Positions 5,406 to 52,127 of a stretch of DNA of 64,000 nucleotides are shown piece after piece. The stretch is taken from positions 576,001 to 640,000 of the IMG/VR virus record IMGVR_UViG_3300021431_000075, one strand, 5' to 3'. The DNA is from a virus. Lineage: Duplodnaviria; Caudoviricetes. Made by a program: the position numbers and the translations under genes. Positions within the stretch are counted from its first letter, which is position 1. Each line of letters starts with the position of its first letter. The notes beneath the pieces were generated by a model that was not told the origin of the DNA, did no database searches, and saw only the letters and a program-made list of their open reading frames with translations.

Positions 5406-5480
5406 TTATTGTTCAACCTGTGTTCTTTCAATAGAATTATCTTCAAAATCTGCATCCTTGATAATCAAAAGTTTTCCCAT
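5406..5480 (-). CDS. 24-aa leader micro-ORF MGKLLIIKDADFEDNSIERTQVEQ
   Basis: Manual translation; four paralogous micro-ORFs with synonymous differences, one per outer cassette. Confidence 0.7.
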   Translation of the reverse strand: MGKLLIIKDADFEDNSIERTQVEQ

Positions 5481-5679: not shown

Positions 5680-5760
5680 ATGGGAAAGATTGTAATCATA
5701 AAGGATGCAGATTTTGAAGAAAATTCAATTGACATTCATCAAACATCATCAGAACAATAA
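5680..5760 (+). CDS. 26-aa leader micro-ORF MGKIVIIKDADFEENSIDIHQTSSEQ
   Basis: Manual translation; paralogue of 5406, 37375 and 39308 micro-ORFs. Confidence 0.7.
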   Translation: MGKIVIIKDADFEENSIDIHQTSSEQ

Positions 5761-12457: not shown

Positions 12458-12504
12458 TGATTGCAAAATGATTACTTTTAGTATTAAAATTACAAAACTG
12501 CGAG

Positions 12505-12518
12505 GTTTCTTATTCAAG
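12505..12518 (-). repeat. Inner-family site S1 (one mismatch: CTTGAATAAGAAAC)
   Basis: 13/14 match to CCTGAATAAGAAAC; variant base at 12517. Confidence 0.7.
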
Positions 12519-12599
12519 CGAGTTTGCTACAGCATAGAACTACTTACAATTCTCTAATGCACAGAAACTTACACCAACTAATTGAAAGAGTAGAACTTA

Positions 12600-12613
12600 C
12601 CTGAATAAGAAAC
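12600..12613 (+). repeat. Inner-family site S2
   Basis: Exact CCTGAATAAGAAAC preceded by GAACTTA. Confidence 0.8.
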
Positions 12614-12660
12614 GTTGGAATTTTGATATTTTAATACTAAATGTAATCATTTTGCAATCA

Positions 12661-14700
12661 ATGAGTACGAATGTAACCAAGATGAGAGTCAAGGGTGTTG
12701 TGTACAATCTTAATAAATTATATGACACAACTGGTTCTAATACAGACGGAAGTGTAACACAATCATTTTTTACAAGAAAGTTATCAGGAAAGAAAATAAG
12801 CATACCAGATACTGCAGATAATAGGTATTTGGTATCATCGACTGCAAAGTGGACTAATTCAAACTATTCAATTCTAATAGATGTCGTTTCTTTTCGTGGA
12901 AATAAAATAATCATCAATAATGTAATCGTTACAGGAACGAAATATGCATTCTTGATTGATAGTGATGAAACTTCTGTCACTTTGTGTAATGGAACTTCTA
13001 TCTCTGATTATACAAATTTCACTGCATTGACGATTCCAAATGATGCTAACTACTTATATCTTTATCTTGGAAACAATGTTCCGACTTATATGCCTGCTGT
13101 GTTTGTATATGGCACTGAAGAAGGTATTGAATACAGATTGACAAAAATAGAAAATGATGTTTATCAAATATCTGGCGAGACAGCAGAAATCACCAACTAT
13201 ACAAACAAATATATTATGTTATCAAGAGGAAGTTGGTTAGATGCACCGAATGAAAACTCTCATTGTGTCATAGTTGATGTTTCGAAGCAACGTAGCAATA
13301 AGATTAAAACCAACATCGGCGTTCAGTATGCGTTTATATCTGTTGACAATGGACAAAAAGTTATATATTGCAAAGATGTCAACGACACTGACTTACAAGG
13401 TTCTATAACATTAAATTCATTTTATACTATTCCAGATGATGCTATAGAATTTTATGTGTTTTATACAGGAGACACGATTCCAACTTTTGAATTTGAAACG
13501 CCGATAAAAGAAGGCATCAATCAGAAAATTATTGGTATTGAATCTGAATTAACAACCATTCAGCAAAATATAAATTCAGTTAAAGATAAAGTCAACGGTC
13601 GCATTCTTGAAATTCCAAATGCCGCTGACAATATATATTGTGGTTTAACATCGGGCAAATGGATGAGTGGAAATTATTCAATATTGCTTGACGTTTCCAA
13701 GTTCAGAGGCGAACAGATAAAGGCATCACAAGGCAACCAATGGGCATTTATGTTATCAGACGGCGGTCATGCCGTTGGTGGTATATGTGTATTTTGTAAA
13801 AATTCTTCAAACGAAGACATAAAGGGAACATCATTCGATAAGAACACATGGTATGACATTCCGTTGGATGCAAATTACTTTTATTTATATTTAAGCAATA
13901 ATCCATCTACTGTTCCAACTATAGAAATCACAGGAGAAGTTTACGGATTAGACAATATCATAGAAAATATCGACGCGATTTCATCTTCAACTATTATAAC
14001 AAAAGGAAAGAAGATAGCTTGGTTTGGTGATAGCCTAAGTCAACTTATGGAATTGCCTCATCTTGTTGAAAAAAGAATAGGTCAGACTGTGTATGATTGT
14101 AGTTTTGCAGGAGCGCCAATATATGGTTCCGGTTCAAACACAGACAATTATTATGATACCGGTTTCTGTTCTCTTGTATCGCAAATTGTAGCAAATGATT
14201 TCACACCGTTGCAAACTGCTCTTGACAATCAATTAAGCCAGGGACAAATAACACAAGATAGTTATAACAAGAAAATGATAAACTACAACATCTTGTCAAA
14301 TATTGATTTTAGTGAAATAGATAAGATTGTTGTATTTGCAGGAACAAATGATAAAGTTTATTCAACATTAAACATAGAGCCGTTGAAAACAGGTTTGAGA
14401 AATGCATTGCAATCGCTTTTCACAAATAAACGCAACATTATTGTTTATGGAATATTGCCACCATATAGAACAGATTGGGATGAGACATCTAACGGAACAA
14501 AAAGAACATTGTTACAAATCAATAGTGCAATTGCAGAAGTGTATTCTGAATTCGGCATTCCGTATCTTGATTTCTTCCATGCATGCTGCACCAATCAATA
14601 TAACTATTTGCAATGGATGAACAATGACGGTTTGCATCAAAATGCTGCCGGAGACAAGATGTGGGCTGATAAGATAAGCGCGTGGTTGTTGAGTTGTTAA
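12661..14700 (+). CDS. Inner cassette 2: fibre-like protein with repeated beta modules and SGNH hydrolase
   Basis: MSTNVTKMRVKG start; FGDSL, FAGA, AGTND, DGLH blocks. Confidence 0.75.
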   Translation: MSTNVTKMRVKGVVYNLNKLYDTTGSNTDGSVTQSFFTRKLSGKKISIPDTADNRYLVSSTAKWTNSNYSILIDVVSFRGNKIIINNVIVTGTKYAFLIDSDETSVTLCNGTSISDYTNFTALTIPNDANYLYLYLGNNVPTYMPAVFVYGTEEGIEYRLTKIENDVYQISGETAEITNYTNKYIMLSRGSWLDAPNENSHCVIVDVSKQRSNKIKTNIGVQYAFISVDNGQKVIYCKDVNDTDLQGSITLNSFYTIPDDAIEFYVFYTGDTIPTFEFETPIKEGINQKIIGIESELTTIQQNINSVKDKVNGRILEIPNAADNIYCGLTSGKWMSGNYSILLDVSKFRGEQIKASQGNQWAFMLSDGGHAVGGICVFCKNSSNEDIKGTSFDKNTWYDIPLDANYFYLYLSNNPSTVPTIEITGEVYGLDNIIENIDAISSSTIITKGKKIAWFGDSLSQLMELPHLVEKRIGQTVYDCSFAGAPIYGSGSNTDNYYDTGFCSLVSQIVANDFTPLQTALDNQLSQGQITQDSYNKKMINYNILSNIDFSEIDKIVVFAGTNDKVYSTLNIEPLKTGLRNALQSLFTNKRNIIVYGILPPYRTDWDETSNGTKRTLLQINSAIAEVYSEFGIPYLDFFHACCTNQYNYLQWMNNDGLHQNAAGDKMWADKISAWLLSC

Positions 14701-16952: not shown

Positions 16953-16966
16953 GTTTCTTATTCAGG
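16953..16966 (-). repeat. Inner-family site S3
   Basis: Exact reverse complement of CCTGAATAAGAAAC. Confidence 0.8.
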
Positions 16967-17047
16967 CGTGTTTGATGCGGCATATAACTACTTACAATTC
17001 TCTAATGCACAGAAACTTACACTAACTAAGGGAAAGAGTAGAACTTA
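16967..17047 (+). repeat. 81-bp spacer repeated between back-to-back sites
   Basis: Identical (reverse complement) to 32218-32298; about 8 mismatches to 12519-12599. Confidence 0.85.
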
Positions 17048-17061
17048 CCTGAATAAGAAAC
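17048..17061 (+). repeat. Inner-family site S4
   Basis: Exact CCTGAATAAGAAAC. Confidence 0.8.
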
Positions 17062-17103: not shown

Positions 17104-20085
17104 ATGAGCACTAACGTAACCAAGATGAGAGTTAAGGGAGTTGTTTATACTCTCAATGGAAAGTTATATAATTCTACCGGTTCGAACACAGACGGTAGCA
17201 TGACGCAAGCTGTTATTACATCTGAATTGACAGATGCTAAAGATATGGCAGAGTCTGCTCTCGCTATTGCTGAACAGGTTCGTGAAGAAGGAACGACAAC
17301 TATTGAAGGAAATGTGACGAACAACCCTGATGAAGAAGACTTGACCACTGTTATCAATGCACAGACGAATCTTGGTGAACTCAAACTCAAGAACAGAGCT
17401 TATGTTCCTGTTGAAAATTCAAAAGGCTATGTCATTCTCCGAAAGAATAATAATTTTTCATCTCAACTAACACAAACCAACACTGTTTATGAGATACGAT
17501 ATAATTTTGATTTGAATGGTGGAATAGTTGAAATTCCAGAAAACTGTACATTAAAATTTAATGGTGGTTCTATCTCCAATGGAACACTTGTTGGTTCTGA
17601 AACATATATTGATGCGATTGATGAAAATATTTTAATACAAATAACAATTGGTGGAACTTGGTCAAATGAGATAATAACAGACAAATGGTTTAATGATGCA
17701 AATATATTAAACATTAATGCTATTATGCGTGAAGATGTATATCAGCATATTTATATGACTAAAGATTATATTTGCAATGCACTTGAAAACACTGGTTATT
17801 TAATTCCATTAAGCAATACCTATATTCATTTAATCGGTTCAATTACAAGCAATCTAACAATTACAAATCATAGATTGATATTCATATATACAAATCCTAC
17901 ATTTGAAAGTTTAAAAAATATAACTATTGATGGCGAACGAGTTGGAAAAATAAACGGTAATCGAAGTCTTATTCCAATTAGTGAAGAAGGAGCTTTACAA
18001 TCAAATGGAAAATACAAACATACAGAAAACGGAATAGGTATCGCAATACGTGGAAATATAGATGGTGTTACAATTAAGAATCTTGAAATTTATGAATGTC
18101 ATTGTGATGGTATTTATGCAGCATCTGGAAAAAACATTATTATACAAGATTGTTATATTCATGGTTGTATCAGACAAGGAATCTCTATTTGTTCTGATGT
18201 GTCATCTGTTACAAATTCGGAAAATGTTTTGGTAAAAGATTGTCGAATAGAAAATATTGTAGATTATGAGAACAACGGTTACGTTATTGAATCCGGACCG
18301 GGTGCTGCTATTGATATAGAACCGAACAGAAATGGTGGTTTTTGTAAAAATATATCAATAGAAAATATTACATTAAACAACTGTGTAAAAGGTATTCAAT
18401 TGGATGCATCACGCTCTGTAGCAACTGGAGAAAGTTTTGTTAGCAATGTAAGAGTATGTAACATTAAAGCAAGCAATGTATCAAGTTATCTATTAAGTAC
18501 ATATTCTAAGGCGGAAAACATAACAATTGAGAATATTACAGTTGAACACGTGAAGTATGAAAAAGATGATAATGCTTCATCTGGTTTATTCTTTATGTGT
18601 ATGTATGCTAAAAATATATTGCTTAATGATGTTGATGCAGTTGGGATAGGTAACGGATGTGTAATAAACGGTTCAACAGATATCTTGATAACGAATAGTA
18701 CAATAAGTTGCATTCGATTATTCTTCAGTGATTCAACAGATAATGAAAATGTAGAATTCAAAAATTGTAGAATTGATGCAAATAATATCAGCAATTCTCA
18801 TCAAGCAATTAGCGGAATAAATTTCTCATTAAATTATTTTAATATAATTTCTACTGACGGCTTCAACACATGGTTGTCCAATACCATATTTAAAGATAAT
18901 TATATTACAGGTTCAAACATTAGATTCGGTGAAAGCAATACAAGTAATGTGTTGAAAAACATTATTTTTGAGAACAATGAATTCAATATTACAAGAAATG
19001 CCCAAATTATTGTTTCTGCTGCCGATGTTCTTTTTGCAAATAATACATTCTTTTGTAATAATAATGCAAATGTTAAAGTTATAGTTAGAGGAATTGTAAA
19101 TAATGCTAATATTCGATTCATAGATAATCAACTTATTGATTATGTAAATAATTATTCAGATTTGATATATGATGGAAATCTCGGTTCATTGTATATAATA
19201 ACTATTGATGGAAAAATATATGATAATGGTTCTTGGAATTATACAAACGGAGATGCCATTATGATAAAACGTGGGTTGCTTGAAAACATACCTGATATAG
19301 AATCAGGAAATGACGGTGTTTCATATTATGCTACCGATATTCAAAAGAATTGCTACATTCAACAAAGAAATGACAAATTCTTATGGGCAGATAGTGATGG
19401 TTATCCTGTGTTCATTTACAATTATGAAGGAAGTGCCAATGTATTACATATTATTGAAAAACAAGGTCCATTGTCAGACAAACCAATATGTGGAAAAGTA
19501 GGAATGCGGTATTTTGAAACTACAAATAACCAACCTATTTATATAAAGAGCGGTACAGTTCCTGCATATGACATCACATTATCATTTGTTGACAATCCAA
19601 CTTATACCGGTTCTATTAATGAAGGTTATAGTGGTGGAAATTTTGTATTTACGTTTGAGAATGTAAAAAAGAGAATTGCTTTTCAAAAAACAAATAATGT
19701 TGGAACTATATTAACAGAAATATTTAACGCATTAAATCCATATTTTAACATTACAGTAGATACAGAAAACAACAAATTTACAATAATTGGAAATTTTATA
19801 GGTTCACATGTTCCACAAATATCTGGAGTATATATATATTCTACATATCCATTAAAATTGAGTGCTTCAAGAAGTGCTATAACTCGTGGAAGTCTTATTT
19901 GGGTTGATGAAGAAGGAGTAGATGTAACGAACGTCTCTACTGTCAAGGGAACTACTGTTCAGAGAGAAGCATTGACTCTTGCCGCTACTAACGAAGGTCT
20001 GAGGTACTATGACACTACTCTTAAGAAGTACGTTCTCTGGAACGGAACACAATGGACAAATCTTGATGGAACAGCATTGTCTTAA
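17104..20085 (+). CDS. Inner cassette 4: tailspike-like right-handed beta-helix (pectin-lyase-like) protein
   Basis: MSTNVTKMRVKG start; Asn/Ile-rich beta-helix repeats (DGIYAASGKNIIIQDCYIHGCIRQGISI, AAIDIEPN). Confidence 0.7.
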   Translation: MSTNVTKMRVKGVVYTLNGKLYNSTGSNTDGSMTQAVITSELTDAKDMAESALAIAEQVREEGTTTIEGNVTNNPDEEDLTTVINAQTNLGELKLKNRAYVPVENSKGYVILRKNNNFSSQLTQTNTVYEIRYNFDLNGGIVEIPENCTLKFNGGSISNGTLVGSETYIDAIDENILIQITIGGTWSNEIITDKWFNDANILNINAIMREDVYQHIYMTKDYICNALENTGYLIPLSNTYIHLIGSITSNLTITNHRLIFIYTNPTFESLKNITIDGERVGKINGNRSLIPISEEGALQSNGKYKHTENGIGIAIRGNIDGVTIKNLEIYECHCDGIYAASGKNIIIQDCYIHGCIRQGISICSDVSSVTNSENVLVKDCRIENIVDYENNGYVIESGPGAAIDIEPNRNGGFCKNISIENITLNNCVKGIQLDASRSVATGESFVSNVRVCNIKASNVSSYLLSTYSKAENITIENITVEHVKYEKDDNASSGLFFMCMYAKNILLNDVDAVGIGNGCVINGSTDILITNSTISCIRLFFSDSTDNENVEFKNCRIDANNISNSHQAISGINFSLNYFNIISTDGFNTWLSNTIFKDNYITGSNIRFGESNTSNVLKNIIFENNEFNITRNAQIIVSAADVLFANNTFFCNNNANVKVIVRGIVNNANIRFIDNQLIDYVNNYSDLIYDGNLGSLYIITIDGKIYDNGSWNYTNGDAIMIKRGLLENIPDIESGNDGVSYYATDIQKNCYIQQRNDKFLWADSDGYPVFIYNYEGSANVLHIIEKQGPLSDKPICGKVGMRYFETTNNQPIYIKSGTVPAYDITLSFVDNPTYTGSINEGYSGGNFVFTFENVKKRIAFQKTNNVGTILTEIFNALNPYFNITVDTENNKFTIIGNFIGSHVPQISGVYIYSTYPLKLSASRSAITRGSLIWVDEEGVDVTNVSTVKGTTVQREALTLAATNEGLRYYDTTLKKYVLWNGTQWTNLDGTALS

Positions 20086-20216: not shown

Positions 20217-20224
20217 GATAAATA
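20217..20224 (+). promoter_or_regulatory. Putative late promoter GATAAATA of tail tube gene
   Basis: Same octamer upstream of the prohead protease and in both switch segments. Confidence 0.55.
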
Positions 20225-20303: not shown

Positions 20304-20915
20304 ATGCCAATAAGTACTCCTCAGATTACATCGCCGGGTCTTCTCGGTTTGAGTCATTTCAGGAACAGCCGTGTTTCAACGTCTCTTTGGGAACCTATAT
20401 ACCAGAACCTGTTTAGCGTGACGCTTGTTCCGCCAGAGCCACTTCAGGGCGACGACGAAAGAGTAAGAGTCATTCTTGAAGGCGTTCAGCAAGTCGGCAC
20501 AATACCTGCATCAAAGGCTTCGACCGCAGTTGAGCAGAAGTACAAGTTCGCTACCCGCTCGTTCTCTAACGCGACTCCTGAGAACACGACGATGGACTTG
20601 CAGATCAGCTTCGCTCTCAACCTCTCATATGACAACGAGACTCCGGAGAACTACACGTACAAGTTCCTTCGCCAGTGGGTTGACCTTGTGTATGATCCAT
20701 TGACTGGTCGTCAGGGACTTAAGAGGGACTATGTCGCTCCTTCCATGACAATCACGATGCACGACCGTGCAGGAAGTCCGTACTGGCAGTGGGTTATGTG
20801 GTACATATTCCCTACGACAGGTGCAGGCGGTCCGACACTCAACTACACAAGCGGCGACTTGATGTCAATCCAGATGACATTCAGATGCGACTGGTGGGAT
20901 GAGGTTTGCCTCTAA
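20304..20915 (+). CDS. Tail tube protein (T4 gp19-like)
   Basis: 203 aa; EPIYQNLFSV, FLRQWVDLVYDPLTGRQGLKRDY, IFPT, LNYTSGDLMSIQMTFRCDWW typical of the gp19 family; core-like codon usage. Confidence 0.8.
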   Translation: MPISTPQITSPGLLGLSHFRNSRVSTSLWEPIYQNLFSVTLVPPEPLQGDDERVRVILEGVQQVGTIPASKASTAVEQKYKFATRSFSNATPENTTMDLQISFALNLSYDNETPENYTYKFLRQWVDLVYDPLTGRQGLKRDYVAPSMTITMHDRAGSPYWQWVMWYIFPTTGAGGPTLNYTSGDLMSIQMTFRCDWWDEVCL

Positions 20916-21092: not shown

Positions 21093-24000
21093 CTAACTAC
21101 TTTGTTCAGTTTGCATATAGACTTCTTTATATACACCAACTTGTGTAGAACTTCCAGCACTGATACATCTATAACCAACTTTTAATAAATTTGTCATTAG
21201 TACAGGATTTTCTATTTCTATAGTAATGTTTGTATTAGTTGTTTTTAGTATTTTCCATTCATTACTATTTTCATTCGAAGGATTTGTATCACCTTTTGCA
21301 TCAATGATTAATTTTCCATTTTTTAATTCATAACCATACATTACATTAGATGTAGGAGTAGTACATTTCACTCTTGTTGTTAAACAACTGTTAATGTTAT
21401 CATCAAATAACACAGCCTGTTCAGAATATAGTTCAAATACGCTGTTTATAAATTGGTTTGATTTACTCGCTCCAATAAGTATATCATTTACTGTACCTTT
21501 TATGTGACATTTTATGTAACTATTTATGAAGTTAAATGCACCGGCATATATAAGATGACTATTGTTTGATGAAGAAGTAAATTTACAATCTACTACTTGT
21601 AAATTATTTATGGTTGATTCATTATCATAACAACGGAAGATGTTGTTTACACCTGTAATATTACAATTGATTATCTGAACATCATCTGTTCCAAAACCAA
21701 ATGAGCAAAATGTTGAACTTCCATTATCTAATATATTTCCATTATATAGACGTACAGTATTATTGCTAATAATATTATTATTTCCATTCATATAGTACAA
21801 ACCTCTAAAAAAGTCAATTGAATTATCCGCAACATCAATATTAAATACATTGTTATTGCAAATAATATTATCAACTCGATAAACATCTGTATTTCCACCG
21901 GTTTGTCCGATAATTGTAATGAAATTTGTATATGTGTGTTTTATTGCTATTATATTATCTTCAAATCTTGTACCTGCAGAACGTATCTGAACTTTTCCTT
22001 CAATATAACAATTTTTGATTAAACAGTCTTTAAATGCTGTTTTGTTGTTTCCTTGCATAAAAATAGCATAAAATGTACTACCATTATTATATGTGTTTAT
22101 AAATTTACAATTAATGATATTAAGTTTCTTTACATTTGCCAAACTTACTACTGCAGTAATACAACCATTAGTTGTAGAACTGTTTATCTCACTAAAAGAA
22201 CAATTATTTATGGTAATTGCTTCATAAGAATGACCATATATTGCAAACTGAATAGAATTTGCACTATTTTCAACAGAATTTATATTTTTAAACTCACAAC
22301 TTTCAAAAATAACATTTGCATTGACATCTTGAATTTTTACCAGTGAACGTGCAACCCACTTTGAGTTTGTTTCATCATAATATTCCAATGCTAAACCATT
22401 TGCATCAAAAATAGTATTTTCAACTCTGAATGAACTTTTGAACGTAACTACTGTATTTTTATTCAAAACTTTTATAGTTCCGCCATATATATTAGATTTT
22501 GGTTCTATCTCACCAGATATTCCATAAGTATTTGTAAGATGTATTGTATTACTTATAAAATGAGCTTTGCTTAATGCAATTGTATCATCAGTAATACCAT
22601 CACCGGTAGCACCGAACCATTCAGGGTAAGCTTCTGCAATATTCCATGAACCATCAAAATTGATATTTTCACCAAATATTTGTTCTTTATCAGCAACAAT
22701 AGATGTATTGTTACCTGTTATTGTAATGATATTGTTTGAATCATTTATAAATTTACCACCTATGAAACGTAAAGTGATATTATTTGGTAATACAAGAGAA
22801 TCTGACAATATAACATCTTCTTTTATATCTATGAATTTTTCAACTTCTATGTCAGTCGTTGCTGTATAATCTATCGGATTTATTTCATAACAAGGAACGA
22901 GTGGATTTGAAGAGTTATTTCCATATCTATATTGACTACCAAGAATATCATGATTATAATTATTCTTAACGCAAATATATTTGTAGTTTTCAACTATGAT
23001 TTTGCGTGTATTTCTTGAAACTGACAAATAACTATTTGTAAGATTTAATCCACAATCAAATCCTTGCCATGAACCAATATAACCATAATTGAAATATCTG
23101 CGTTTTATGCAATTAATAGTAGCAGTTTCAATAGCTTCGAAATAACCTTTATCAAAAACAACATTTCCACTGATAGAGCATATTCCATAACCTTCAAGAT
23201 TTGGTGATGCATTTGCTACATAACCAATTCCTTCGATAACAGAATTTGTTAAAGATATTTCACGACTACAATTTATTATACCTTCTTGACATGCCTCAAT
23301 CACTATATTATCAAAAATAGCATTTGTTGTTTGTCTGGAACAAAATAATCCAATATAACAATATCTTATCAAGAAATCTCTTTTGTGAGTACACCATTCA
23401 AAATCATCTATTACTCCGATATTAAATCTTTCAACATATATGTTTTCAATACTTCCTCTAACGAATGTAGTAGTTTGTTCAACGTTATGTACACCAGTAT
23501 TGTCATGATAACGAATATAACTATAAGATTCACCCATTTGTATTCCTATTGTCATATATAAATAAGACCACATATATTGACAATATTCTTCAAGAGAACA
23601 AATCATAGGATATACATCATCATTATCAACATAAGTATGTGATGATAGATAAGGTATTCTATAATCTCCTATTCTTTTTCCAATAGAATAACAAATATAT
23701 CTATATAAAATATTAGTTCGTACATCATCTATTCCGTTTAATTTTCTGGCAACGTAATTTCGTACCCAAGCAAACATATTCTCACGAACTTCATCATCTT
23801 CTTCAGAAGTAAATGTCGGATTTGAATAATTCGTCTCATAATACTTAATAAATGATGTGATTAAATCTTCATTAACTCTTAAGTTTCTCCAATCTGAATA
23901 TAAGATTTTACACAATTGATTAAACGTAAGACTTTTACCAGAATATGTTTTCGGCAATTTTTCATATGAATTATCTCCAATATATCTTAATGTATAACAT

Positions 24001-25742
24001 CCTGTATTGATAAACGAACCTATTATGCTAATTCCGATTTTAGCAGTAGTTAAAATAAAAGTTTTTTCACGCCCACTTCCATTAAAATTTATAACGGTAC
24101 TTGTATTTAAACGTAATCTTTTTATTGTTGTTTGTATAGTTAATGATTCATCAAGATAACCGTTTATTATATTCTCTGTAAAATCAGAATGTAAATTTAT
24201 AGTTTCATTAACATAATAATATCTCGGCAACAGTAAAATATTAAGTCCGATTCTCTTGCTAATACTTATTACTTTATTTAGTATTGATGAACAATATTCA
24301 GGTTCTGAAACAATATTATTATAACTTATTGCTCCCCACCACTCTATAAATAAATTTTCTACATTCCAGTTTCCTTCTAATTCTATATTATCAAATATCT
24401 TTATCATATTTGCATCAATATTAGCATTATTTCCAACTATTATTCCATTAGTAATTGAACCTCCATTAAATTTCAAAACACATCCATAAGGAAGTATAAG
24501 TTTTTTTGAAATATTATATCTTCCTTCATATATAGAAGAATTTATGGCAATGCAAGGAGTATAAAGTAAAGCATGAGATGTATTGTTTGTCAATGTATAT
24601 TCATTTCCATTAACAACATCCGGTTCTTTTTTGGTTGTTCCAAGTTCATTAAGAACTGTACATTCTCCAAGAACTGTTAGAACTAATGATGGTGTTCCAA
24701 TATTACTGCTTTCAACTGGAAATAAAGCAATAATTCTATTAATAAGTGTTTCTAATGGTATAGCTTCACTTCTTTCATATCTATTACCATTTATATTAGA
24801 ATATGTATCTAATGATATATTACTTTCTATACTTCTACTGCACAATATTGATGTATGAATGTCTGTTCCCGGTGTTGAAGTTCCAATGTATATATTATCA
24901 TCCGATTGCATAATATATTCATTGTTAGAAGTAGTTAGTTGTTGTTTATTTTTATCATATAATAATTCACCTTGACCAAGAGTTATTACATCTCCTTTAT
25001 TCAAAGAGAGAACATTAGACAGATAATGCGAAATACCAGTTTCTAATTGACTTGAAGATTTCATCCCAGTTGTATTGCAAGTAGAAATTGCAGTCAATTT
25101 AAAAGGTTTTTGTTGTATTGGTGACTTTTTTGCTAAATAAACAATATTCGTTGAAGGTAGATTGATAATATCTCCAAATTCATTATTATTAGAATCTATA
25201 AAAATACACCCATCAAGTCCCATTATTATATTTCCTTCATCAAATTGACTTAAATCAATTTGTGAATCAGATATATTGTATTTGAACGAACCGGAAATGA
25301 TTTGATTGCTTAAACTTAATACTGGTTCGTCATCTGTAACTTTTAAATTAAAGTTATTTCTGATTTCAAATATCGTATTTGTCTTTCCGGCAATCTGTTC
25401 TTCAATCGGACTATCTGAACGAAGAATACAATATCCTTTTGTATTTTCGACTGGAACATATGCTCTGTCTTTGATTTTCAGAACACCAACACCTGTCTGT
25501 GAGTCTAAAACTGTCGTAATATCGTCTTCATCAGGATTGTTAATTACATTTCCTTCGATATTGAATCTTCCATCTTCTTGCAACTGGCTTATGTCATTGT
25601 AGATTTCATCAATTGCTTCTTGAATGTTTGTTGCTTCAGTATTGCTTACAGTCTTATCAAAAGAAACTTTGGATGCATCTTGGCTGATGTTGTAGTTTAC
25701 TCCTTTGACTCTTATTTTGTTTACAGTACTATTGATAGACAT
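21093..25742 (-). CDS. Inner cassette 5: 1549-aa tailspike-like protein with two beta-helix regions (predicted ON in this orientation)
   Basis: VNKIRVKGVNY N-terminus; IEWWGA and YPEWFGATGDGITDDTIAL pectate-lyase-3-type entry motifs; shares the NNPDE..RAYVPVEN module with 17104. Confidence 0.7.
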   Translation of the reverse strand: MSINSTVNKIRVKGVNYNISQDASKVSFDKTVSNTEATNIQEAIDEIYNDISQLQEDGRFNIEGNVINNPDEDDITTVLDSQTGVGVLKIKDRAYVPVENTKGYCILRSDSPIEEQIAGKTNTIFEIRNNFNLKVTDDEPVLSLSNQIISGSFKYNISDSQIDLSQFDEGNIIMGLDGCIFIDSNNNEFGDIINLPSTNIVYLAKKSPIQQKPFKLTAISTCNTTGMKSSSQLETGISHYLSNVLSLNKGDVITLGQGELLYDKNKQQLTTSNNEYIMQSDDNIYIGTSTPGTDIHTSILCSRSIESNISLDTYSNINGNRYERSEAIPLETLINRIIALFPVESSNIGTPSLVLTVLGECTVLNELGTTKKEPDVVNGNEYTLTNNTSHALLYTPCIAINSSIYEGRYNISKKLILPYGCVLKFNGGSITNGIIVGNNANIDANMIKIFDNIELEGNWNVENLFIEWWGAISYNNIVSEPEYCSSILNKVISISKRIGLNILLLPRYYYVNETINLHSDFTENIINGYLDESLTIQTTIKRLRLNTSTVINFNGSGREKTFILTTAKIGISIIGSFINTGCYTLRYIGDNSYEKLPKTYSGKSLTFNQLCKILYSDWRNLRVNEDLITSFIKYYETNYSNPTFTSEEDDEVRENMFAWVRNYVARKLNGIDDVRTNILYRYICYSIGKRIGDYRIPYLSSHTYVDNDDVYPMICSLEEYCQYMWSYLYMTIGIQMGESYSYIRYHDNTGVHNVEQTTTFVRGSIENIYVERFNIGVIDDFEWCTHKRDFLIRYCYIGLFCSRQTTNAIFDNIVIEACQEGIINCSREISLTNSVIEGIGYVANASPNLEGYGICSISGNVVFDKGYFEAIETATINCIKRRYFNYGYIGSWQGFDCGLNLTNSYLSVSRNTRKIIVENYKYICVKNNYNHDILGSQYRYGNNSSNPLVPCYEINPIDYTATTDIEVEKFIDIKEDVILSDSLVLPNNITLRFIGGKFINDSNNIITITGNNTSIVADKEQIFGENINFDGSWNIAEAYPEWFGATGDGITDDTIALSKAHFISNTIHLTNTYGISGEIEPKSNIYGGTIKVLNKNTVVTFKSSFRVENTIFDANGLALEYYDETNSKWVARSLVKIQDVNANVIFESCEFKNINSVENSANSIQFAIYGHSYEAITINNCSFSEINSSTTNGCITAVVSLANVKKLNIINCKFINTYNNGSTFYAIFMQGNNKTAFKDCLIKNCYIEGKVQIRSAGTRFEDNIIAIKHTYTNFITIIGQTGGNTDVYRVDNIICNNNVFNIDVADNSIDFFRGLYYMNGNNNIISNNTVRLYNGNILDNGSSTFCSFGFGTDDVQIINCNITGVNNIFRCYDNESTINNLQVVDCKFTSSSNNSHLIYAGAFNFINSYIKCHIKGTVNDILIGASKSNQFINSVFELYSEQAVLFDDNINSCLTTRVKCTTPTSNVMYGYELKNGKLIIDAKGDTNPSNENSNEWKILKTTNTNITIEIENPVLMTNLLKVGYRCISAGSSTQVGVYKEVYMQTEQSS

Positions 25743-25772: not shown

Positions 25773-25801
25773 CGTTTCTTATTCAGGTAAGTTTTGTTCT
25801 T
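25773..25801 (-). repeat. Inner-family site S5 (left arm of promoter switch)
   Basis: 29-bp inverted repeat with 26161-26189, 1 mismatch. Confidence 0.85.
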
Positions 25802-26160
25802 TCCTTTCCGTCTTTGAAAACTGCTCGTTCTTTCCTTAAAAATGTTTTTTTATTTTTCAAGTCAAGAACTTCATCGAAAACGATTTTACTATTTATCTTG
25901 ATTTGACGCTTTCTTGTTATTCTGTTTTTGCTAATCAGATAAAAAGAAACATCCATTTCGATTGAGAGTTCTCAAATGCTGACAGTCACTTGTCATGACT
26001 AATCAGCCAAAGAAACACTTTTATTTTCATTATTTATCTTTGCATTTTGCGAGACCATTCAAAACGCTTTTCAGGTTTATTAGCACAGAACAGCTGCTGG
26101 ACTGCGATTTCTTGAAGTTAAGAAATCTTAATAAAAACACGTAACGCATTATTAATATTG
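25802..26160 (-). promoter_or_regulatory. Putative invertible promoter segment of the inner array
   Basis: Non-coding; GATAAATA on minus strand at 25890-25897 and 26031-26038; 26013-26038 matches the protease promoter/leader 50341-50365 except for one inserted base. Confidence 0.7.
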
Positions 26161-26189
26161 AAGAACAAAACGTACCTGAATAAGAAACG
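26161..26189 (+). repeat. Inner-family site S6 (right arm of promoter switch)
   Basis: AAGAACAAAACGTACCTGAATAAGAAACG. Confidence 0.85.
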
Positions 26190-26229: not shown

Positions 26230-27768
26230 ATGAGTATGGATATAGGCAAGATAAGAGTAAAGGGAATTGTTTATAATCTCAAAGATAATCTATATGACAC
26301 GCTTGGAGACCACACTGACGGAAGCATGACTCAGGCAGCAATAACCAGCAATTTTGATGAGATTACTTCTGGCATTGCATCAAAAGCTGATGTTCAGAAC
26401 GACATCAATGCCGATTTTGACATAGCTGATGATAATAACCACTCTATTGTACGTTTCACTGACGGACATATCCAGACGCAGAACTTTGATAGCCATGATG
26501 TAAACAAATTAAAACAGAACGTTGGCTTAACAAAATATCAAGAGTTTTCTGACGAGAGTGATTATTATGTCGGAAACATCGTTCTTCATGACGGCTTGCT
26601 TTATAAGTTCACATCAAACCATACAGCAGGCTCATGGGACTCATCAGAAGTTGAAGAAACTGACATTACTGACAACATAGAAAAATCTACTGATGTTATC
26701 AATTCTTCATATGATTTTGATATTGCTGATGAAAACGGTCTTTCTATTCTAAGAGTATCAAACGGATACTTGAAAACAAAGAATTTTGACAGCGAGAACA
26801 TCGACACAGAAGTATCTCAAAAGACCGATGAGTATCTCCAGTATCTTCGTGGAGGTTCCCCATCTACTATCATAACAGGAATTCCTTCCAATGCAGACAT
26901 AGCAATTAATGACACAATCAAACAAATTCTTGCCACGTGTCCATATGCCGATATCATCCTCATAGCAAATCCTTCAACCAGACGCAACAAACAGCGTTTC
27001 ATAAAGAGGCGTGCATATATCGAAGAACTGAAAGCATTTGCAGATTTCTATTCATTTGGTTTCATCAATTTAAGAGATGCTGGCATATCAAGACCGATGG
27101 TAACGGACACGTCTTATTATACAACTGACGGAACTCACACAAACGATTTGGGAAGCGAGAAACTATTCAATTACATATACGGATTTCTAACACAACGTTA
27201 TAACGGAGAAGAAAATATATCATCAAAGAAAATACTTGTGATGGGAGATTCTTCTTGCGCTCATCAGAATCCAAGTAGCTCCTCGCCGGACGGATTCTTC
27301 TCTTGGAGTACATTGTTGATGAAAAAGTCCAATAGAAGATATGAACTGTTTGATTCTTCAAAATCTTATAATATCGGCGATGTGGTTAGACGTGAAGTGG
27401 AATACACATTATCGAACAACAAAACGGTTTCCATTCCGTATCTATACGAGTTCGTTAACAATCACAGCGGTTCTTGGACTCAAAATGATGTCAAAGTCGT
27501 TAAGAAAGATGTGTATTTGGCAGCAGTCGGCGGTTCTGGATGGAGTGCTGTAGCAGAGACTGGATACACGTCTTCGGACAGAGCAGTTTCTGTCCAGTTC
27601 AATGACTGGAAAGCAACAAAGACATTAGACCCGGTTACGCAGCAAGTGAATCCGGAGGATATAGACATCATTATCATAGGAACTGGCGGAAACGAGTTGA
27701 ACAAATTCAAACTCGATTATTCATCAACAATGAAGTATTTGTGTAATGATGAAACTATTGTTTATTAA
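26230..27768 (+). CDS. Inner cassette 6: fibre-like protein with apparently circularly permuted SGNH domain and two small CBM-like modules
   Basis: IGKIRVKGIVYNL start; DGTH block precedes MGDSS, VGGSG and GTGGNE. Confidence 0.65.
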   Translation: MSMDIGKIRVKGIVYNLKDNLYDTLGDHTDGSMTQAAITSNFDEITSGIASKADVQNDINADFDIADDNNHSIVRFTDGHIQTQNFDSHDVNKLKQNVGLTKYQEFSDESDYYVGNIVLHDGLLYKFTSNHTAGSWDSSEVEETDITDNIEKSTDVINSSYDFDIADENGLSILRVSNGYLKTKNFDSENIDTEVSQKTDEYLQYLRGGSPSTIITGIPSNADIAINDTIKQILATCPYADIILIANPSTRRNKQRFIKRRAYIEELKAFADFYSFGFINLRDAGISRPMVTDTSYYTTDGTHTNDLGSEKLFNYIYGFLTQRYNGEENISSKKILVMGDSSCAHQNPSSSSPDGFFSWSTLLMKKSNRRYELFDSSKSYNIGDVVRREVEYTLSNNKTVSIPYLYEFVNNHSGSWTQNDVKVVKKDVYLAAVGGSGWSAVAETGYTSSDRAVSVQFNDWKATKTLDPVTQQVNPEDIDIIIIGTGGNELNKFKLDYSSTMKYLCNDETIVY

Positions 27769-29540: not shown

Positions 29541-32156
29541 TTATGAATTTTTAAGTACATATTCACCGTATCTGTATAACTGTACTCTTAACGTATAATC
29601 ACCAATAGCAAAAACATCATCACCATAGTTTATCCTACTATGGTTTGATGTTATATGAGTGCCCGGTACTGCATTGTCACCTCCAAACATAATGGATGAA
29701 CATATTTCTATTGTGCATGCAAATACAGCACCTTGTTCATTGAAATATTTTGTTGTTGTTCCATTACCTGTTGTTGATGCCACTCTGTTTATAGCACCTT
29801 TATAATACTCGTCTGTTGTATCACCAAAATACTCCTCACCAAGTTCCTTCATAAATGTATATACACAATCACTACAAGCATTTCTTGTAAGAAGTATTTG
29901 ATCTGAATTACCAATATGAGTGTAAAAATGATATACTGTCCATAAATCCCAATCGTAATTATGATGATCTATGACAAAATCAGGATTTATTACTTCTTTC
30001 CATGCCATTATCATTTGTGTCTCTGCTTCACTCCCCGCATAAGGTCCTGTATTGTTACTACCTGCTGTTTCATCAGCTACCCATCCATTAAAAGGGAAAT
30101 TACGATTGATGTTAACACCATTTGCATTAACTCTCTGATTGTGATACTGACCATATCCATTAACACAAGGAATGAAATAAATATCAAACGCATTCAAGAA
30201 TTGTACTAAATTTGGCTCATTTGCATGACAAAGAGAATATGCCAATATGTATGTATTTACTGGACCCGCTTTTTCATTACCATGCAAGGCTGACACAATC
30301 AGCAATTTCTTTTTTGTAGTATCGTTTGGTTTTCTTATAAATTTGTATATATAAGTATTGTATGAAGGAGTTGCCAAATAATCACCTGATGCAACATTAT
30401 TAAGTTCGGCATAGGATGGATTTTGAAGATTGACAGCTGTATATGCGTTCTCTTTTGATACATAATCTGGAAATGCTGCGACTAAAGCATCAAATCCATT
30501 TTGCACCTTATCATGTATTGTATTATCATCGTCCAATCTTCTATTATTTGAGTTTTTCTGCCATATTGTTTCTACAATACTTGAAACATCGCGCAATTTA
30601 TGGTCAATTATAAATGTTGGGTAATCAGCTGATGTTATTTTTATATTTGCAATTCTATTCGATAGTTCTTCTAAAGCCAAGGAATTCTTTATCTCTTTTA
30701 ATTCTGCAACAGTTGCAGGGGTATCTTCTGTACCTTTTTGAACAGTAATCCTTACCGCATATTCACCACTACAAATATAATTTCTTGATTTTACTTGAGA
30801 ATAGTTAACAAAAGCAAGCGTTTCCTTGTTGTATAACAATGCCCATCTCACTCTATATCCAACAGGCATTGTTATTTTCTTTGAACCATAAATGAAATTA
30901 CTTCGCAAAAGATAATTACTATCAACATCTTTTCCTACTACATTAATACCACCTCTTTCAAATAATATCAAATTATTGTCAAATGGGGCATTAGTCACAT
31001 TCTCTGCATAGTCGGCTTCAAGTGAGTCTAATCTATCTGTGAAATCAAGAACACGTCTTTTTATTTCCTCTATCGAGGTTTCTATCTTATATGATTGATT
31101 CCTATATACATTAAAGATGACATAACCATCATCAGGGGCAATCAATTCAAGAAGAACGACTTCGAGATTTGCATTTGCATGGCTTACAATCTCATTATCA
31201 GTATCAACAAAGCACCACAATCTTGCGTTTGCACCTCCCTTTCCTGTTATACGAAATTTATCACCTTCTTTACATTCAAGAACAATATAATTAAGGCTTT
31301 GGCTTGTAGTCGGAGTGATAACTATCTCTGTGCCTATTTCTGATGATGTATTGACTTGCCCTGACTTTGCTTCATCTGATACATCAAAATACAATGAATC
31401 TTGCAAATCCTCCACATCATCATTCACTTTCTCCAATGAAAGATTTTGTTTCAAGTCATAAACTGTAATATCTGTGGCATCGTTGTCATTCTTCTTAATT
31501 ACAATTCTTGCAACCTTACCTGATATTTCAGTAATGATGAATGTATTGGAGTTTGATTTTGAACCATCATAACTTGAAAAAGAAAAATCATCTATATTGT
31601 AATATACAATATATTGACAAACAAACCCCGTAGGAAGTTTCAAGGTATAAGTGCCACTGATATAACTCTTTGATCTCAATCTTTTAGAATTCGTTGTTTC
31701 TTTACCTGAAACATCAATACCACCTTGCTCAAAGAGAATCGACTCACATTTTAATTTTGGAAGTTCATCATCTATATATTTCGTGTATGATATAAAAGAA
31801 TAATTTGTGTCATCATAATAATACTGCTTGTTCTCAAATACATAGTTGGCACCATCCTTGTAAGGCACTTCCATAAATGTGCTTGTACTCAAATCACCCG
31901 TGTAATCTGTGCATTTATATATCTTTCTTTGTGTTGTGTTGTAATAGTATTGCCCTACCGCCGTCACATTACTATAAATCTTACTACTTGCCGAGATAGA
32001 TTGCAATACTATTTGTTTTGAATCTAACTTGAAGATTTCTTCTGATGCTGCTTTCTGAGTTAAGCAGCCGTCTGTATTGTCACCAAGTTCATCATATAAC
32101 TTATTAAGATTGTACACAACACCCTTAACTCTCATCTTGGTTACATTCGTACTCAT
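29541..32156 (-). CDS. Inner cassette 7: fibre-like protein with M14 zinc carboxypeptidase domain
   Basis: Start reassigned to MSTNVTKMRVKG; LHGNE, RVNANGVNINRNF, SEAETQ, IDHH motifs. Confidence 0.75.
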   Translation of the reverse strand: MSTNVTKMRVKGVVYNLNKLYDELGDNTDGCLTQKAASEEIFKLDSKQIVLQSISASSKIYSNVTAVGQYYYNTTQRKIYKCTDYTGDLSTSTFMEVPYKDGANYVFENKQYYYDDTNYSFISYTKYIDDELPKLKCESILFEQGGIDVSGKETTNSKRLRSKSYISGTYTLKLPTGFVCQYIVYYNIDDFSFSSYDGSKSNSNTFIITEISGKVARIVIKKNDNDATDITVYDLKQNLSLEKVNDDVEDLQDSLYFDVSDEAKSGQVNTSSEIGTEIVITPTTSQSLNYIVLECKEGDKFRITGKGGANARLWCFVDTDNEIVSHANANLEVVLLELIAPDDGYVIFNVYRNQSYKIETSIEEIKRRVLDFTDRLDSLEADYAENVTNAPFDNNLILFERGGINVVGKDVDSNYLLRSNFIYGSKKITMPVGYRVRWALLYNKETLAFVNYSQVKSRNYICSGEYAVRITVQKGTEDTPATVAELKEIKNSLALEELSNRIANIKITSADYPTFIIDHKLRDVSSIVETIWQKNSNNRRLDDDNTIHDKVQNGFDALVAAFPDYVSKENAYTAVNLQNPSYAELNNVASGDYLATPSYNTYIYKFIRKPNDTTKKKLLIVSALHGNEKAGPVNTYILAYSLCHANEPNLVQFLNAFDIYFIPCVNGYGQYHNQRVNANGVNINRNFPFNGWVADETAGSNNTGPYAGSEAETQMIMAWKEVINPDFVIDHHNYDWDLWTVYHFYTHIGNSDQILLTRNACSDCVYTFMKELGEEYFGDTTDEYYKGAINRVASTTGNGTTTKYFNEQGAVFACTIEICSSIMFGGDNAVPGTHITSNHSRINYGDDVFAIGDYTLRVQLYRYGEYVLKNS

Positions 32157-32203: not shown

Positions 32204-32217
32204 GTTTCTTATTCAGG
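32204..32217 (-). repeat. Inner-family site S7
   Basis: Exact reverse complement of CCTGAATAAGAAAC. Confidence 0.8.
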
Positions 32218-32298
32218 TAAGTTCTACTCTTTCCCTTAGTTAGTGTAAGTTTCTGTGCATTAGAGAATTGTAAGTAGTTATATGCCGCATCAAACACG

Positions 32299-32312
32299 CC
32301 TGAATAAGAAAC
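32299..32312 (+). repeat. Inner-family site S8
   Basis: Exact CCTGAATAAGAAAC. Confidence 0.8.
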
Positions 32313-37374: not shown

Positions 37375-37452
37375 TTATTGTTCTTCTATTGATACTGTTT
37401 CAACTGAGTTTTCTTCAAAATCAGCATCCTTGATGATTAAAAGTTTTCCCAT
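37375..37452 (-). CDS. 25-aa leader micro-ORF MGKLLIIKDADFEENSVETVSIEEQ
   Basis: Manual translation; paralogue of the other three. Confidence 0.7.
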   Translation of the reverse strand: MGKLLIIKDADFEENSVETVSIEEQ

Positions 37453-37594: not shown

Positions 37595-38587
37595 TCAATC
37601 ATTCCAGCATACGTACTTTCCAAACGCGCTTTCCGATTTATGTCCAGATGCGCGTCTCACTTCTTCGTTGTGCAACCCACGTTTGATTGCATTTGTAATC
37701 ATCGTTCTTCTTGCCGTATGTGAACTGATAAGCTCATAGAACTTGTATGTCACTTTCTTCAGTTCCCCGTTCTGCTTATACTCGTATACGATCTCATCAT
37801 CAAAACCGGCAAGTTTGAACAGTAAGTGAAGATACTTGTTATAGTTCTCTGTGCCTCCCTTGTATGGATTCGTATAGTTATACTTCATAAGAAGTCCCTC
37901 TATTATTTTTGGATATGGAGCTATCCTTTTCAAATCTATGACTGCTTTGTTTCCTGTTTTCTTCTGAATAATCGTAAGAACGTTGTTATTGAACATCGTC
38001 TTGTCGATTCTTTCGATGTCAGATATTCTCTGTCCAAGCGCGCATGAAATGACAAACTGGTCCCTGACTTTCGTAAGAGTCTGCTTGAGCTGTGGTCTCA
38101 CGTCAAGAGTGCTTATGTCAAAATATGTTATTCTGGATACTTCATCTTGCGTCAAAGCAATCTTTGGTCTCTTGTCGCTACCCGGCATGTAACAGTCTTC
38201 CAGTGTTGGAGACACTTTCGCCCCGTACTTGGCAGACCATTTCAGAACTGCCGAAATCTTGCAGCAGATGTTGTTGATTGTGCTTGTTGCAAGGTTCTTC
38301 TGAAGAAGGTAAGTATGAAATTGCTGCCAGAACACATCTCCGATTACAATCGGGTAAAGAACGATTTCATTCTCGTTCTGGATATTCATCAAGTGCATCT
38401 TCACTTGAGAGTATCTCCGTTCAGCTGCTTTCGTTGATGCTTTTGAGCGAATCTTCACATACTGGTCAATACATTCAAGAACCGTTGCATTCTTGAGATT
38501 GATAAAATGGTTAAATTTGTCCGTGTCTGCAAAGATTTTAAAATTTGGACACTTCTTTTCCGGTTCTTCCGATTTTATATCTGCCAT
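37595..38587 (-). CDS. Tyrosine recombinase (Bacteroidota-type integrase family), putative invertase
   Basis: Catalytic signature GQRISD (R), QKKTG (K), SHTARR (HxxR), SGH, and Y in FGKYV. Confidence 0.92.
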   Translation of the reverse strand: MADIKSEEPEKKCPNFKIFADTDKFNHFINLKNATVLECIDQYVKIRSKASTKAAERRYSQVKMHLMNIQNENEIVLYPIVIGDVFWQQFHTYLLQKNLATSTINNICCKISAVLKWSAKYGAKVSPTLEDCYMPGSDKRPKIALTQDEVSRITYFDISTLDVRPQLKQTLTKVRDQFVISCALGQRISDIERIDKTMFNNNVLTIIQKKTGNKAVIDLKRIAPYPKIIEGLLMKYNYTNPYKGGTENYNKYLHLLFKLAGFDDEIVYEYKQNGELKKVTYKFYELISSHTARRTMITNAIKRGLHNEEVRRASGHKSESAFGKYVCWND

Positions 38588-38627: not shown

Positions 38628-38635
38628 CAAAATTA
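38628..38635 (-). promoter_or_regulatory. Bacteroidota-type -7 box TAATTTTG upstream of recombinase
   Basis: Matches TAnnTTTG followed by CA, as at 29383 and 58221. Confidence 0.55.
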
Positions 38636-39307: not shown

Positions 39308-39382
39308 ATGGGAAAGATTGTTATTATCAAGGATGCAGATTTTGAAGAAAATTCAATAGAAAGAACATCATCAAATCAATAA
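39308..39382 (+). CDS. 24-aa leader micro-ORF MGKIVIIKDADFEENSIERTSSNQ
   Basis: Manual translation; paralogue of the other three. Confidence 0.7.
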   Translation: MGKIVIIKDADFEENSIERTSSNQ

Positions 39383-39403
39383 AAATGTTTCTATTAACAA
39401 AAG

Positions 39404-42387: not shown

Positions 42388-42430
42388 AAAAAAGCAGATG
42401 AGCATCAAAAACTCATCTGCTTTTCTTTTT
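42388..42430. terminator. Bidirectional terminator; right boundary of the cassette locus
   Basis: AAAAGCAGATGAG...CTCATCTGCTTTT. Confidence 0.75.
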
Positions 42431-46769: not shown

Positions 46770-46791
46770 TAGAATCAAAAACTCTTGTTTA

Positions 46792-50329: not shown

Positions 50330-50357
50330 GACTTTTAATAAAACACTTTTATTTTAT

Positions 50358-50365
50358 TATTTATC
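50358..50365 (-). promoter_or_regulatory. Putative late promoter GATAAATA
   Basis: 28 nt upstream of the protease ATG. Confidence 0.6.
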
Positions 50366-51085: not shown

Positions 51086-52090
51086 TTATAAGAAAATCCC
51101 ATGCTTATCAAGAGCGACTCTTATGCTCATGGCAACATGATATGCAAGATTAACCGGAACCGCATTTCCGACCATCTTGTAGCCCATATTCACATCTTTG
51201 TAATAGAATATGAAATCATCCGGGAATGTCTGAATTCTTGCAACCTCGCGAACAGTCATCCTTCTGTACAAATGCTCATATCCCGGAGCAAATATCTGGC
51301 TGTTCGGACCAGTCTTGACCATTTTCGGAGCCTGCGGATGCAACTGGCACTGACGGCCGCTTGCCTGAACAGTGAATGCAGGTTCATCCCATGAACGAAC
51401 CCTGTTTCTTGACATGAATATCGGAGAATATGAACCTGTAAAGTACTCATGGTTCGGAACTGCGCATGCATCACCGTTCGTCTTGTTCTTCTCAAGAGCC
51501 GGAATCGCGTTGTCCTTTAAGTCCAATATACACTCGCGCAATGTCGGCTTATGATCACATGGTCTCGGATACTCAAAGTCATGGATTTCCAAGTCCTTTC
51601 TGAAACCTATATAGAATACCCGAAGCCTGTCTTCCGGACATTCAAAGTCATTCGCGTTCAGCATCTTAAGGTTGACATTATAGCCAGCATCATCAAAAAG
51701 ACGCATAAATCCATCAACTGCCGCAGAATGTCGCTTTGCCAGCATTCCAGAAACATTCTCAGCAACAAAGAAAAGTGGCTGCACTGCCTTCAATATTCTA
51801 ATATACTCATAGAAAAGTTGACCGCGCGCATCATCTATTCCTCTCAATGTTCCGCCCTCGCTCCAAGACTGGCATGGTGGACCGCCGATAATTCCTGCTA
51901 TCTGTTCTGGAAATACGTTTTCTTTCAAATCTCGTATGTCTCCTTCAATCAATTGCGTGTCAGGGAAATTAGCTTTGAATGTCGGACATATCTTGGAATC
52001 AAATTCATTTGCTATAATGGTCTGGAATCCAGCATTATGAAAACCTTTGTCAAGACCACCAGCACCTGAAAATAAACTGATTAAATTCAT
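51086..52090 (-). CDS. Orphan DNA (cytosine-5) methyltransferase, M.HaeIII-like
   Basis: [36 protein letters not shown]; closely resembles M.HaeIII as recalled. Confidence 0.9.
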
Positions 52091-52127
52091 TGAAAGAAAA
52101 TAAATATTTAAATTACAACACAACCTG

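Follow-up and report, generated by a model that had tools for sequence, protein, structure and literature searches.

We found that a 359-bp non-coding segment in the genome of a 673-kb Bacteroidota-type megaphage is probably the promoter cartridge of a site-specific inversion system, which would select the receptor-binding gene that is expressed. The inverted repeat that bounds the segment, the directional motifs inside it, a mosaic of gene leaders around a common core site and a nearby recombinase gene all lend support to the invertible expression switch with tandem late-type promoters that the initial annotation of this DNA had proposed. As in invertons, short inverted repeats enclose a non-coding segment, motifs aimed outward lie within it, and a gene for a recombinase is found close by.

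The record comprises 673,114 bp with direct terminal repeats and the standard code; among its genes are those for a T4-like prohead protease, a tail sheath, and a large terminase. A crude whole-genome map gave 604 genes at 89.5% coding (10.5% intergenic), with the intergenic DNA enriched for the Bacteroidota-type box TAnnTTTG. The window, i.e., the whole stretch of 64,000 nucleotides that was analysed, covers bases 576001-640000 of the record. Across ~2.9-41.4 kb of the window, G+C falls to 28-37% and 12 large genes are arranged as divergent pairs. All 12 of these cassette genes start with a common N-terminal anchor of ~45 residues (M..NVTK.RVKG..Y.....LYD..G.NTDG..TQ), all have long and intact open reading frames (ORFs), and their C-terminal domains differ (SGNH/GDSL esterases, beta-helix, laminin-G/BNR, DUF4886, peptidase M14, alpha/beta hydrolase, CBM5/12). 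The 12 cassettes are thus predicted to be alternative receptor-binding or depolymerase proteins that share one anchor. Five of them are of particular concern here:

12661-14700: gene B, SGNH esterase, adjoining the type-1 core site at 12594
17104-20085: gene D, beta-helix, adjoining the type-1 core site at 17042
21093-25742, minus strand: gene E, a tail-fibre/spike protein of 1549 aa with the shared N-terminal anchor
26230-27768, plus strand: gene F, 512 aa, with a CBM5/12 and a GDSL-like part and the shared N-terminal anchor
29541-32150: gene G, with a peptidase M14 domain, adjoining the type-1 core site at 32204

Residues 376-530 of the gene E product match the crAss001 tail fibre gp22 (7qoj; E 1.7e-10). 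Between cassettes D and E, inside a potentially invertible segment, we additionally noted a tail-tube-like gene (203 aa, 20304-20915; PHROG 45 and 32623), which carries its own GATAAATAATAAAAG promoter (motif at 20217).

The cartridge is placed between the start codons of the divergent genes E (25742, minus strand) and F (26230, plus strand). Its parts are given below, with identities to L003, a related metagenome contig:

25773-25801, plus strand: left repeat arm, containing the core site GTTTCTTATTCAGGTAAGTT at 25774-25793 with its gene side toward E; 100% identical in L003
25794-25860, minus strand: leader block of 67 nt, from the proximal promoter to the left site, with two GTTCTTTCC repeats; 94% identical in L003
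25802-26160, minus strand: cartridge interior, 359 bp non-coding, with two tandem candidate promoters toward the minus strand
25881-25899, core 25890-25897, minus strand: candidate proximal phage promoter AAGATAAATAGTAAAAT of subtype GATAAATAnTAAAA, 155 nt before the ATG of E; 90% in L003
25962-25975, no strand: perfect palindrome TTGAGAGTTCTCAA between both promoters, unique in the 673-kb genome; identical in L003
26013-26043, core 26031-26038, minus strand: candidate distal phage promoter GCAAAGATAAATAATGAAAATAAAAGTG, 296 nt before the ATG of E; 89% in L003
26161-26189, minus strand: right repeat arm, with its core at 26169-26188 (one mismatch, TACGTT) and its gene side toward F; 95% in L003

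The repeat described earlier as matching at 28 of 29 positions around 359 non-coding bp was recovered as such (29 nt, 97% complementary, 25773-25801 and 26161-26189). It had also been called longer than that of any other inner pair, which is true for a near-perfect repeat reaching into the segment and false for length as such, as other pairs are longer but less perfect: their repeats count the leaders and N-terminal codons (e.g., 12414-12524 and 12594-12704, with 111 nt at 85%). As the repeat in L003 spans only ~20-22 nt, the extra 9 nt are not conserved, and the length of 29 nt appears inessential. The longest ORF of the interior, with 57 aa, was rejected as a gene, since indels break it in L003.

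Two further elements within the cartridge may have a function. The GTTCTTTCC repeats of the leader block at 25794-25860 lie 31 nt apart, and the block as a whole is better conserved in L003 than the promoters are; recombinase arm sites and an RNA element are both possibilities. The palindrome TTGAGAGTTCTCAA may be bound by a protein, either a regulator or an accessory factor. We found neither a structured leader nor a terminator in the cartridge: the proximal leader folds no better than its shuffles (z -1.67) and terminator-like sites are absent. Folding of the whole cartridge gave a z of -3.7, with two sequences only for comparison.

The motifs inside the segment belong to what appears to be the main promoter class of this genome. 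Genome-wide, AATAAATA and GATAAATA were the most enriched upstream 8-mers, and their common form [AG]ATAAATA occurs in 192 copies on both strands across the whole genome, 157 of them intergenic. A start codon lies at most 250 nt ahead of 135 copies, at a modal distance of 30-39 nt; a conserved A follows 5 nt after the motif, and no -35 element is visible. Between co-directional genes we counted 93 copies in sense against 4 in antisense orientation, and between convergent genes only 3 copies. This intergenic enrichment, the spacing, and the 93:4 bias indicate a strongly directional promoter-like element. It differs at the first base only from the T4 late promoter consensus, TATAAATA, and both stand alone without a visible -35 element. 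A difference is that the broad motif also precedes some non-structural genes.

Within the cartridge, the two minus-strand GATAAATA motifs that the initial annotation had listed are present at 25890-25897 and 26031-26038. Its claim that 26013-26038 is nearly identical to the promoter region of the prohead protease (50341-50365) also held, with 25 of 26 positions matching and one inserted base, as did the parallel with the outer switch, as each cartridge has a distal GCAAAGATAAATAA and a proximal AAGATAAATAnTAAAAT in colinear arrangement (89 nt from the end of the proximal motif to the site in the inner and 76 nt in the outer cartridge). The designation as late-type promoters was borne out in part. 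The proximal subtype GATAAATAnTAAAA, of which there are just 8 copies in 673 kb, precedes the tail sheath, the prohead protease, the tail-tube-like gene, and three other genes, and constitutes the proximal promoter in both cartridges, while the broad motif is also found before an exonuclease and an ATPase. One of the three other genes is an IS607 transposase, with the motif 210 nt upstream. From the genes that share this subtype, it is reasonable to assign the cartridge promoters, as predicted elements, to a structural and putatively late type.

The distribution of the motif across the cassette array is sparse. The intergenic copies within 2.9-41.4 kb of the window are, as a complete list, those at 20217, 25897, 26038, 38769, and 39133, and fibre cassettes away from the cartridges thus lack such a promoter; gene F and the inner cassettes A, B, C, D, G, and H all have no [AG]ATAAATA promoter. 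As assembled, both directional motifs of the cartridge are aimed through the left site into gene E and none at F, in agreement with the earlier proposal that the 1549-aa spike is ON. By predicted promoter orientation, gene E would currently be ON and gene F, at the back end of the cartridge, OFF. The distances of 155 and 296 nt between the cartridge promoters and the ATG are far greater than the genome norm of 30-40 nt, which we counted against the switch reading.

Two other sequence classes emerged from the genome-wide comparison. The conserved cassette leader motif TTTTAATACTAAA was considered as a third promoter type and rejected: it is confined to six cassette leaders genome-wide and, being absent elsewhere in the genome, is not a general promoter. 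A second promoter-like class of very rigid form, [AG]ATAAATATCTTATAATA, is represented genome-wide by 26 copies, all of them 27-110 nt from the start codon that follows (examples in the window are at 1284, 1312, 48382, and 60587). Taken together, the genome-wide analysis yielded a usable promoter grammar for this megaphage, composed of the [AG]ATAAATA classes and the host-type TAnnTTTG.

A candidate enzyme for the inversion is encoded in the sister (outer) cartridge, a segment of 1.7 kb (37.5-39.2 kb) that contains the recombinase gene and carries the motifs 38769 and 39133 on the plus strand. In this outer system, a 652-aa gene at 39404 is the cassette at which the promoters are aimed as assembled. 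The recombinase and its predicted promoter are:

37595-38587, minus strand: predicted tyrosine recombinase, 330 aa, inside the outer cartridge and 11.4 kb from the inner cartridge
38628-38635, minus strand: host-type promoter box TAATTTTG(CA), 48 nt before the recombinase ATG, flank score +13.1

This is the sole PF00589-type gene of the genome. Its PF00589 match is full-length but weak (24.6 bits, below the cut-off of 27.1), the SAM-like N-terminal domain PF13102 scores above its cut-off (27.7 bits), and PHROG 1 (integrase) was matched at E 5e-15. Candidate catalytic residues R, H-x-x-R, H, and Y could be located by eye in the translation (QRISD, HTARR, GH, and GKY), and the relatives of the protein are integrases of Porphyromonas and Cellulophaga (Bacteroidota) phages at 26-32% identity. 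Given its well-scoring host-type promoter (TAATTTTGCA), host RNA polymerase in its unmodified form may transcribe the recombinase gene, possibly at an early stage of infection. That this enzyme acts on the inner core sites is our inference.

A serine invertase beside the segment is absent, and the genome's only resolvase-domain protein is an IS607-family transposase ~515 kb away. The latter (NF033518, 180 bits; genome 86025-86630, minus strand), which has a GATAAATAATAAAAG motif 210 nt upstream, is unlikely to serve as the invertase because of its transposase family and its distance. The arrangement also differs from that of Gin/Cin/Hin-type systems, as the sites lie beside whole genes, each with its own start codon, and not beside exchangeable coding 3' ends.

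At up to 2 mismatches, the 20-bp core GTTTCTTATTCAGGTAAGTT has 6 matches in the window against 0.06 expected. At the five core loci the sequence is 100% identical at four and has one mismatch at the fifth (26169), with diverged flanks. Core sites are found in the 5' leaders of B, D, E, F, and G, whereas within the inner system promoters occur only in the cartridge. The sites are:

12594-12613, minus strand: core site, gene B
17042-17061, minus strand: core site, gene D
25774-25793, plus strand: core site, gene E
26169-26188, minus strand: core site with one mismatch, gene F
32204-32223, plus strand: core site, gene G
12505-12524, plus strand: variant (type-2) site, gene A, which shares GTTTCTTATTCA(G/A)G with the core and then diverges
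16953-16972: variant (type-2) site of the same kind, gene C
32293-32312: variant (type-2) site of the same kind, gene H

Each variant site is paired with a core site across a promoter-less spacer of 69-81 nt. Upon aligning all sites, oriented from the gene side to the inner side, we observed a mosaic. Homology among the leaders of B, G, and F extends as far as the core, beyond which the DNA is unrelated: B and G run into a spacer, F into the cartridge; conversely, D and G have identical inner sides and unrelated leaders. Homology breakpoints on both sides thus coincide with the 20-bp core, which is the footprint expected from reciprocal site-specific exchange. At the variant sites no mosaic was seen, with the same leader type joined to the same inner side in 4 of 4 cases. 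As the variant sites are never mosaic, it is not evident how the intact fibre genes A, C, and H would come under a promoter, and their expression is unexplained by the model unless variant sites recombine within the shared 14 bases.

The outer site family, GTTTCTAAACAGGTAAGTTT, has six perfect copies that form three inverted pairs. Outer and inner sites have the same ends, while the outer centre is one base shorter, with AAA instead of TATT. Tiny ORFs starting with MGKIVIIKDADFEENSIE separate each outer site from its fibre gene and are kept as inverted copies:

5410-5480 and 5680-5750: tiny MGKIVIIKDADFEENSIE ORFs
37400-37452: tiny MGKIVIIKDADFEENSIE ORF
39309-39383: tiny MGKIVIIKDADFEENSIE ORF

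We suggest that the inner system would work as follows. A single tyrosine recombinase, made from its own host-type promoter in the sister cartridge, would recombine inverted core sites, each of which joins a gene end to an inner end. There would be five gene ends (B, D, E, F, and G) and five inner ends (the ON end of the cartridge, its back end, and three spacer ends). Exchange between 25774 and 26169 would flip the cartridge, so that F is turned on and E off, and we infer that such flipping takes place. If a cartridge site recombined with a remote one (12594, 17042, or 32204), 6-13 kb would be inverted and B, D, or G brought to a cartridge end. Through such exchanges one of five genes would be transcribed at a time. 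The asymmetric site centre would permit only inversions between inverted sites, and, because the outer family has a different centre (AAA vs TATT), the two cartridges should not interfere with each other, which would allow 5 x 6 combinations. A likely purpose would be bet-hedging over hosts with phase-variable capsules and surface structures. For the genome as a whole, we lean toward a combinatorial phase variation in which one recombinase of a virulent megaphage shifts a pair of orthogonal promoter cartridges within a set of 14 tail-fibre/depolymerase cassettes that are otherwise silent, with 5 to 8 choices for the inner cartridge and 6 for the outer one. If this holds, each burst would contain genomes programmed for different host surfaces, a viral mirror of the capsule phase variation of Bacteroidota.

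We compared the cartridge and its sites with other assemblies. A scan of metagenome contigs with the core returned two relatives, L003 and L004, and three chance matches. In L003 (6.2 kb, rumen-type), two core sites enclose a cartridge that is 80% identical to the present one and is oriented to an E-like leader as it is here. Its flanking fibre genes have no orthologue in this genome, and L003 consequently provides no test of rearrangement. Its identity to the present cartridge varies by block:

core sites: 100% and 95%
leader at 25794-25860: 94%
promoter blocks: ~90%
middle block with the palindrome TTGAGAGTTCTCAA: 88%
region behind the distal promoter: 54%
leader of the back-end gene: 37%

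This polarity of conservation fits a putative element functioning from the distal promoter toward one end. L004 carries a silent spacer module with junctions as at the 16.9-17.1 kb locus. Core and cartridge scans gave nothing relevant in viral contigs, chance matches in unrelated MAGs (genome contigs), and none in GenBank phages; among all the assemblies scanned (viral, genome, and metagenome contigs, and GenBank phages), none had the opposite orientation or a cartridge joined to B, D, or G. Protein searches with the recombinase and with the alignment of the N-terminal anchor returned no relatives among viral contigs.

The lack of any variant arrangement in these collections, together with the same orientation of the L003 cartridge, would also be expected from a fossil switch, in which past exchanges are recorded, useful flipping no longer occurs, E is constitutive, and the other cassettes are spare or decaying. 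The degenerate look of the variant sites at A, C, and H points the same way. We consider such a fossil rather unlikely, however, as the cassette ORFs are all intact and long, the recombinase gene is intact with a good predicted promoter, and the core sites have remained at 100% at four loci, with one mismatch at the fifth, despite their diverged flanks. Similarly, core sites are conserved at 95-100% in L003, whose cartridge is only 80% identical overall.

A different question is whether the distal motif is read in the opposite direction. On the plus strand it reads as TATCTTTGCA (26035-26044), a Bacteroidota host-type -7 box, and the initial annotation had added this as a caveat. Gene F would then be ON instead of E, or transcription from the cartridge would run both ways, driven by host RNA polymerase toward F and by phage-type promoters toward E; we regard this joint reading as distinctly improbable. 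In its favour, TATCTTTG followed by CA agrees with the -7 consensus observed in the genome, host-type boxes are enriched in intergenic DNA (185 of 579 copies), and the composite GCAAAGATAAATA is also present in the outer cartridge, facing the recombinase gene. The caveat is nonetheless weakened by the flanks. Scored with a matrix built from 63 well-placed host-type boxes, those of the 26035 box reach -9.4, at background level: the 47th percentile of chance matches in coding DNA and the 10th of likely true sites. Moreover, no TTTG is found near -24 to -21. The twin box in the outer cartridge scores -6.6, and the recombinase gene is preceded by a separate host-type box at 38635 that scores well (+13.1). 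Three further CAAAGATAAATA copies lie between co-directional genes, where there is nothing to drive in reverse, and TAnnTTTG alone is weakly directional (86 sense vs 46 antisense). The second motif at 25890-25897 has no host-type reading. A host-type reading of the distal motif is hence unlikely on sequence grounds.

It is very improbable that no recombination element exists and that the repeat is a shared operator or leader element of divergently duplicated fibre genes around an ordinary intergenic region of 359 bp: divergent paralogues with conserved leaders do automatically yield inverted repeats, but E and F have unrelated leaders, the repeat is limited to the core and extends inwards and not outwards, the homology breakpoints match the core on both sides, the promoters are aimed at E only and not at F, and a paralogous site family bounds the segment that encodes a predicted tyrosine recombinase.

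The proposed promoter cartridge can be set against known inversion systems. Phages are known to vary their host range by inversion of fibre 3' ends (Mu and P1), by diversity-generating retroelements, or by carrying several fibres at once. In the G segment of phage Mu (Gin) and the C segment of P1 (Cin), site-specific inversion alternates the tail-fibre specificity and thereby the host range: serine invertases, together with an enhancer and Fis, swap variable 3' parts between two states, with the promoter and the constant 5' part fixed outside. Here, by contrast, it is the promoter that would move and whole genes that would be selected, by a predicted tyrosine recombinase and with many possible states. 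Outward promoters on short invertible segments are known from bacteria, in E. coli fimS (314 bp with 9-bp repeats, inverted by the tyrosine recombinases FimB and FimE) and in the Salmonella H segment, where the serine enzyme Hin is encoded inside the segment. Unlike the system proposed here, these are single-gene ON/OFF or two-state switches; the in-segment enzyme of Hin resembles the layout of the outer cartridge and not that of the inner one.

The closest analogues in logic are the unique-promoter vpma/vsp systems of mycoplasmas and the invertible promoters and shufflons of Bacteroides. The vpma locus of Mycoplasma agalactiae and the vsp locus of M. bovis comprise a multigene family of surface proteins with one unique promoter and the tyrosine recombinases Xer1 and Mbr, respectively; every gene carries a recombination site in its 5' untranslated region, a silent gene is brought under the promoter by site-specific inversion, and the locus itself encodes the recombinase (PMC2268961). 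In our array, paralogous genes likewise have a site in the 5' leader (B, D, E, F, and G), with promoters only in the cartridge. The differences are that the genes are virion receptor-binding genes of a virus, that the promoter is carried by a separate cartridge flanked by sites on either side, and that there are two orthogonal cartridges with phage-type promoters; there is no sequence relationship. HvsR of M. pulmonis acts on two distinct site families (PMC2268961), which parallels one enzyme serving both inner and outer sites here.

In Bacteroides (S-layer loci of B. thetaiotaomicron, BT1033-52; B. fragilis), invertible promoters are found on segments of ~300 bp with inverted repeats of 17-18 nt and are flipped by tyrosine recombinases encoded nearby, and PUL/SusC-D shufflons shuffle multiple operons (bioRxiv 10.1101/521070). 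Bacteroides belongs to the probable host phylum, and the present recombinase has the SAM-like N-terminal domain common in integrases of Bacteroidota. The Bacteroides loci are cellular, control capsule, S-layer, or nutrient receptors, and are mostly ON/OFF switches of one operon, whereas the phage cartridge would serve divergent genes on both sides as well as remote cassettes. Our literature search found no report of a phage selecting among complete promoter-less receptor-binding genes by moving a promoter, and 'viral invertons' were only tentatively suggested in 2026. If active, the switch would help to explain the persistence of very large phages on capsule-switching hosts, would turn host range in an uncultivated megaphage into a trait that is switchable and can be tested, and would offer a compact recombinase with two apparently orthogonal families of 20-bp sites.

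Outside the cassette array, two further features of the window were observed. A minus-strand gene of 1473 aa (42429-46850) contains degenerate tandem-repeat arrays with units of 87 nt and ~220 nt (window 43500-45000), and a C-5 cytosine DNA methylase (PF00145, E 4e-91) is encoded on the minus strand at 51086-52123 among the head genes.
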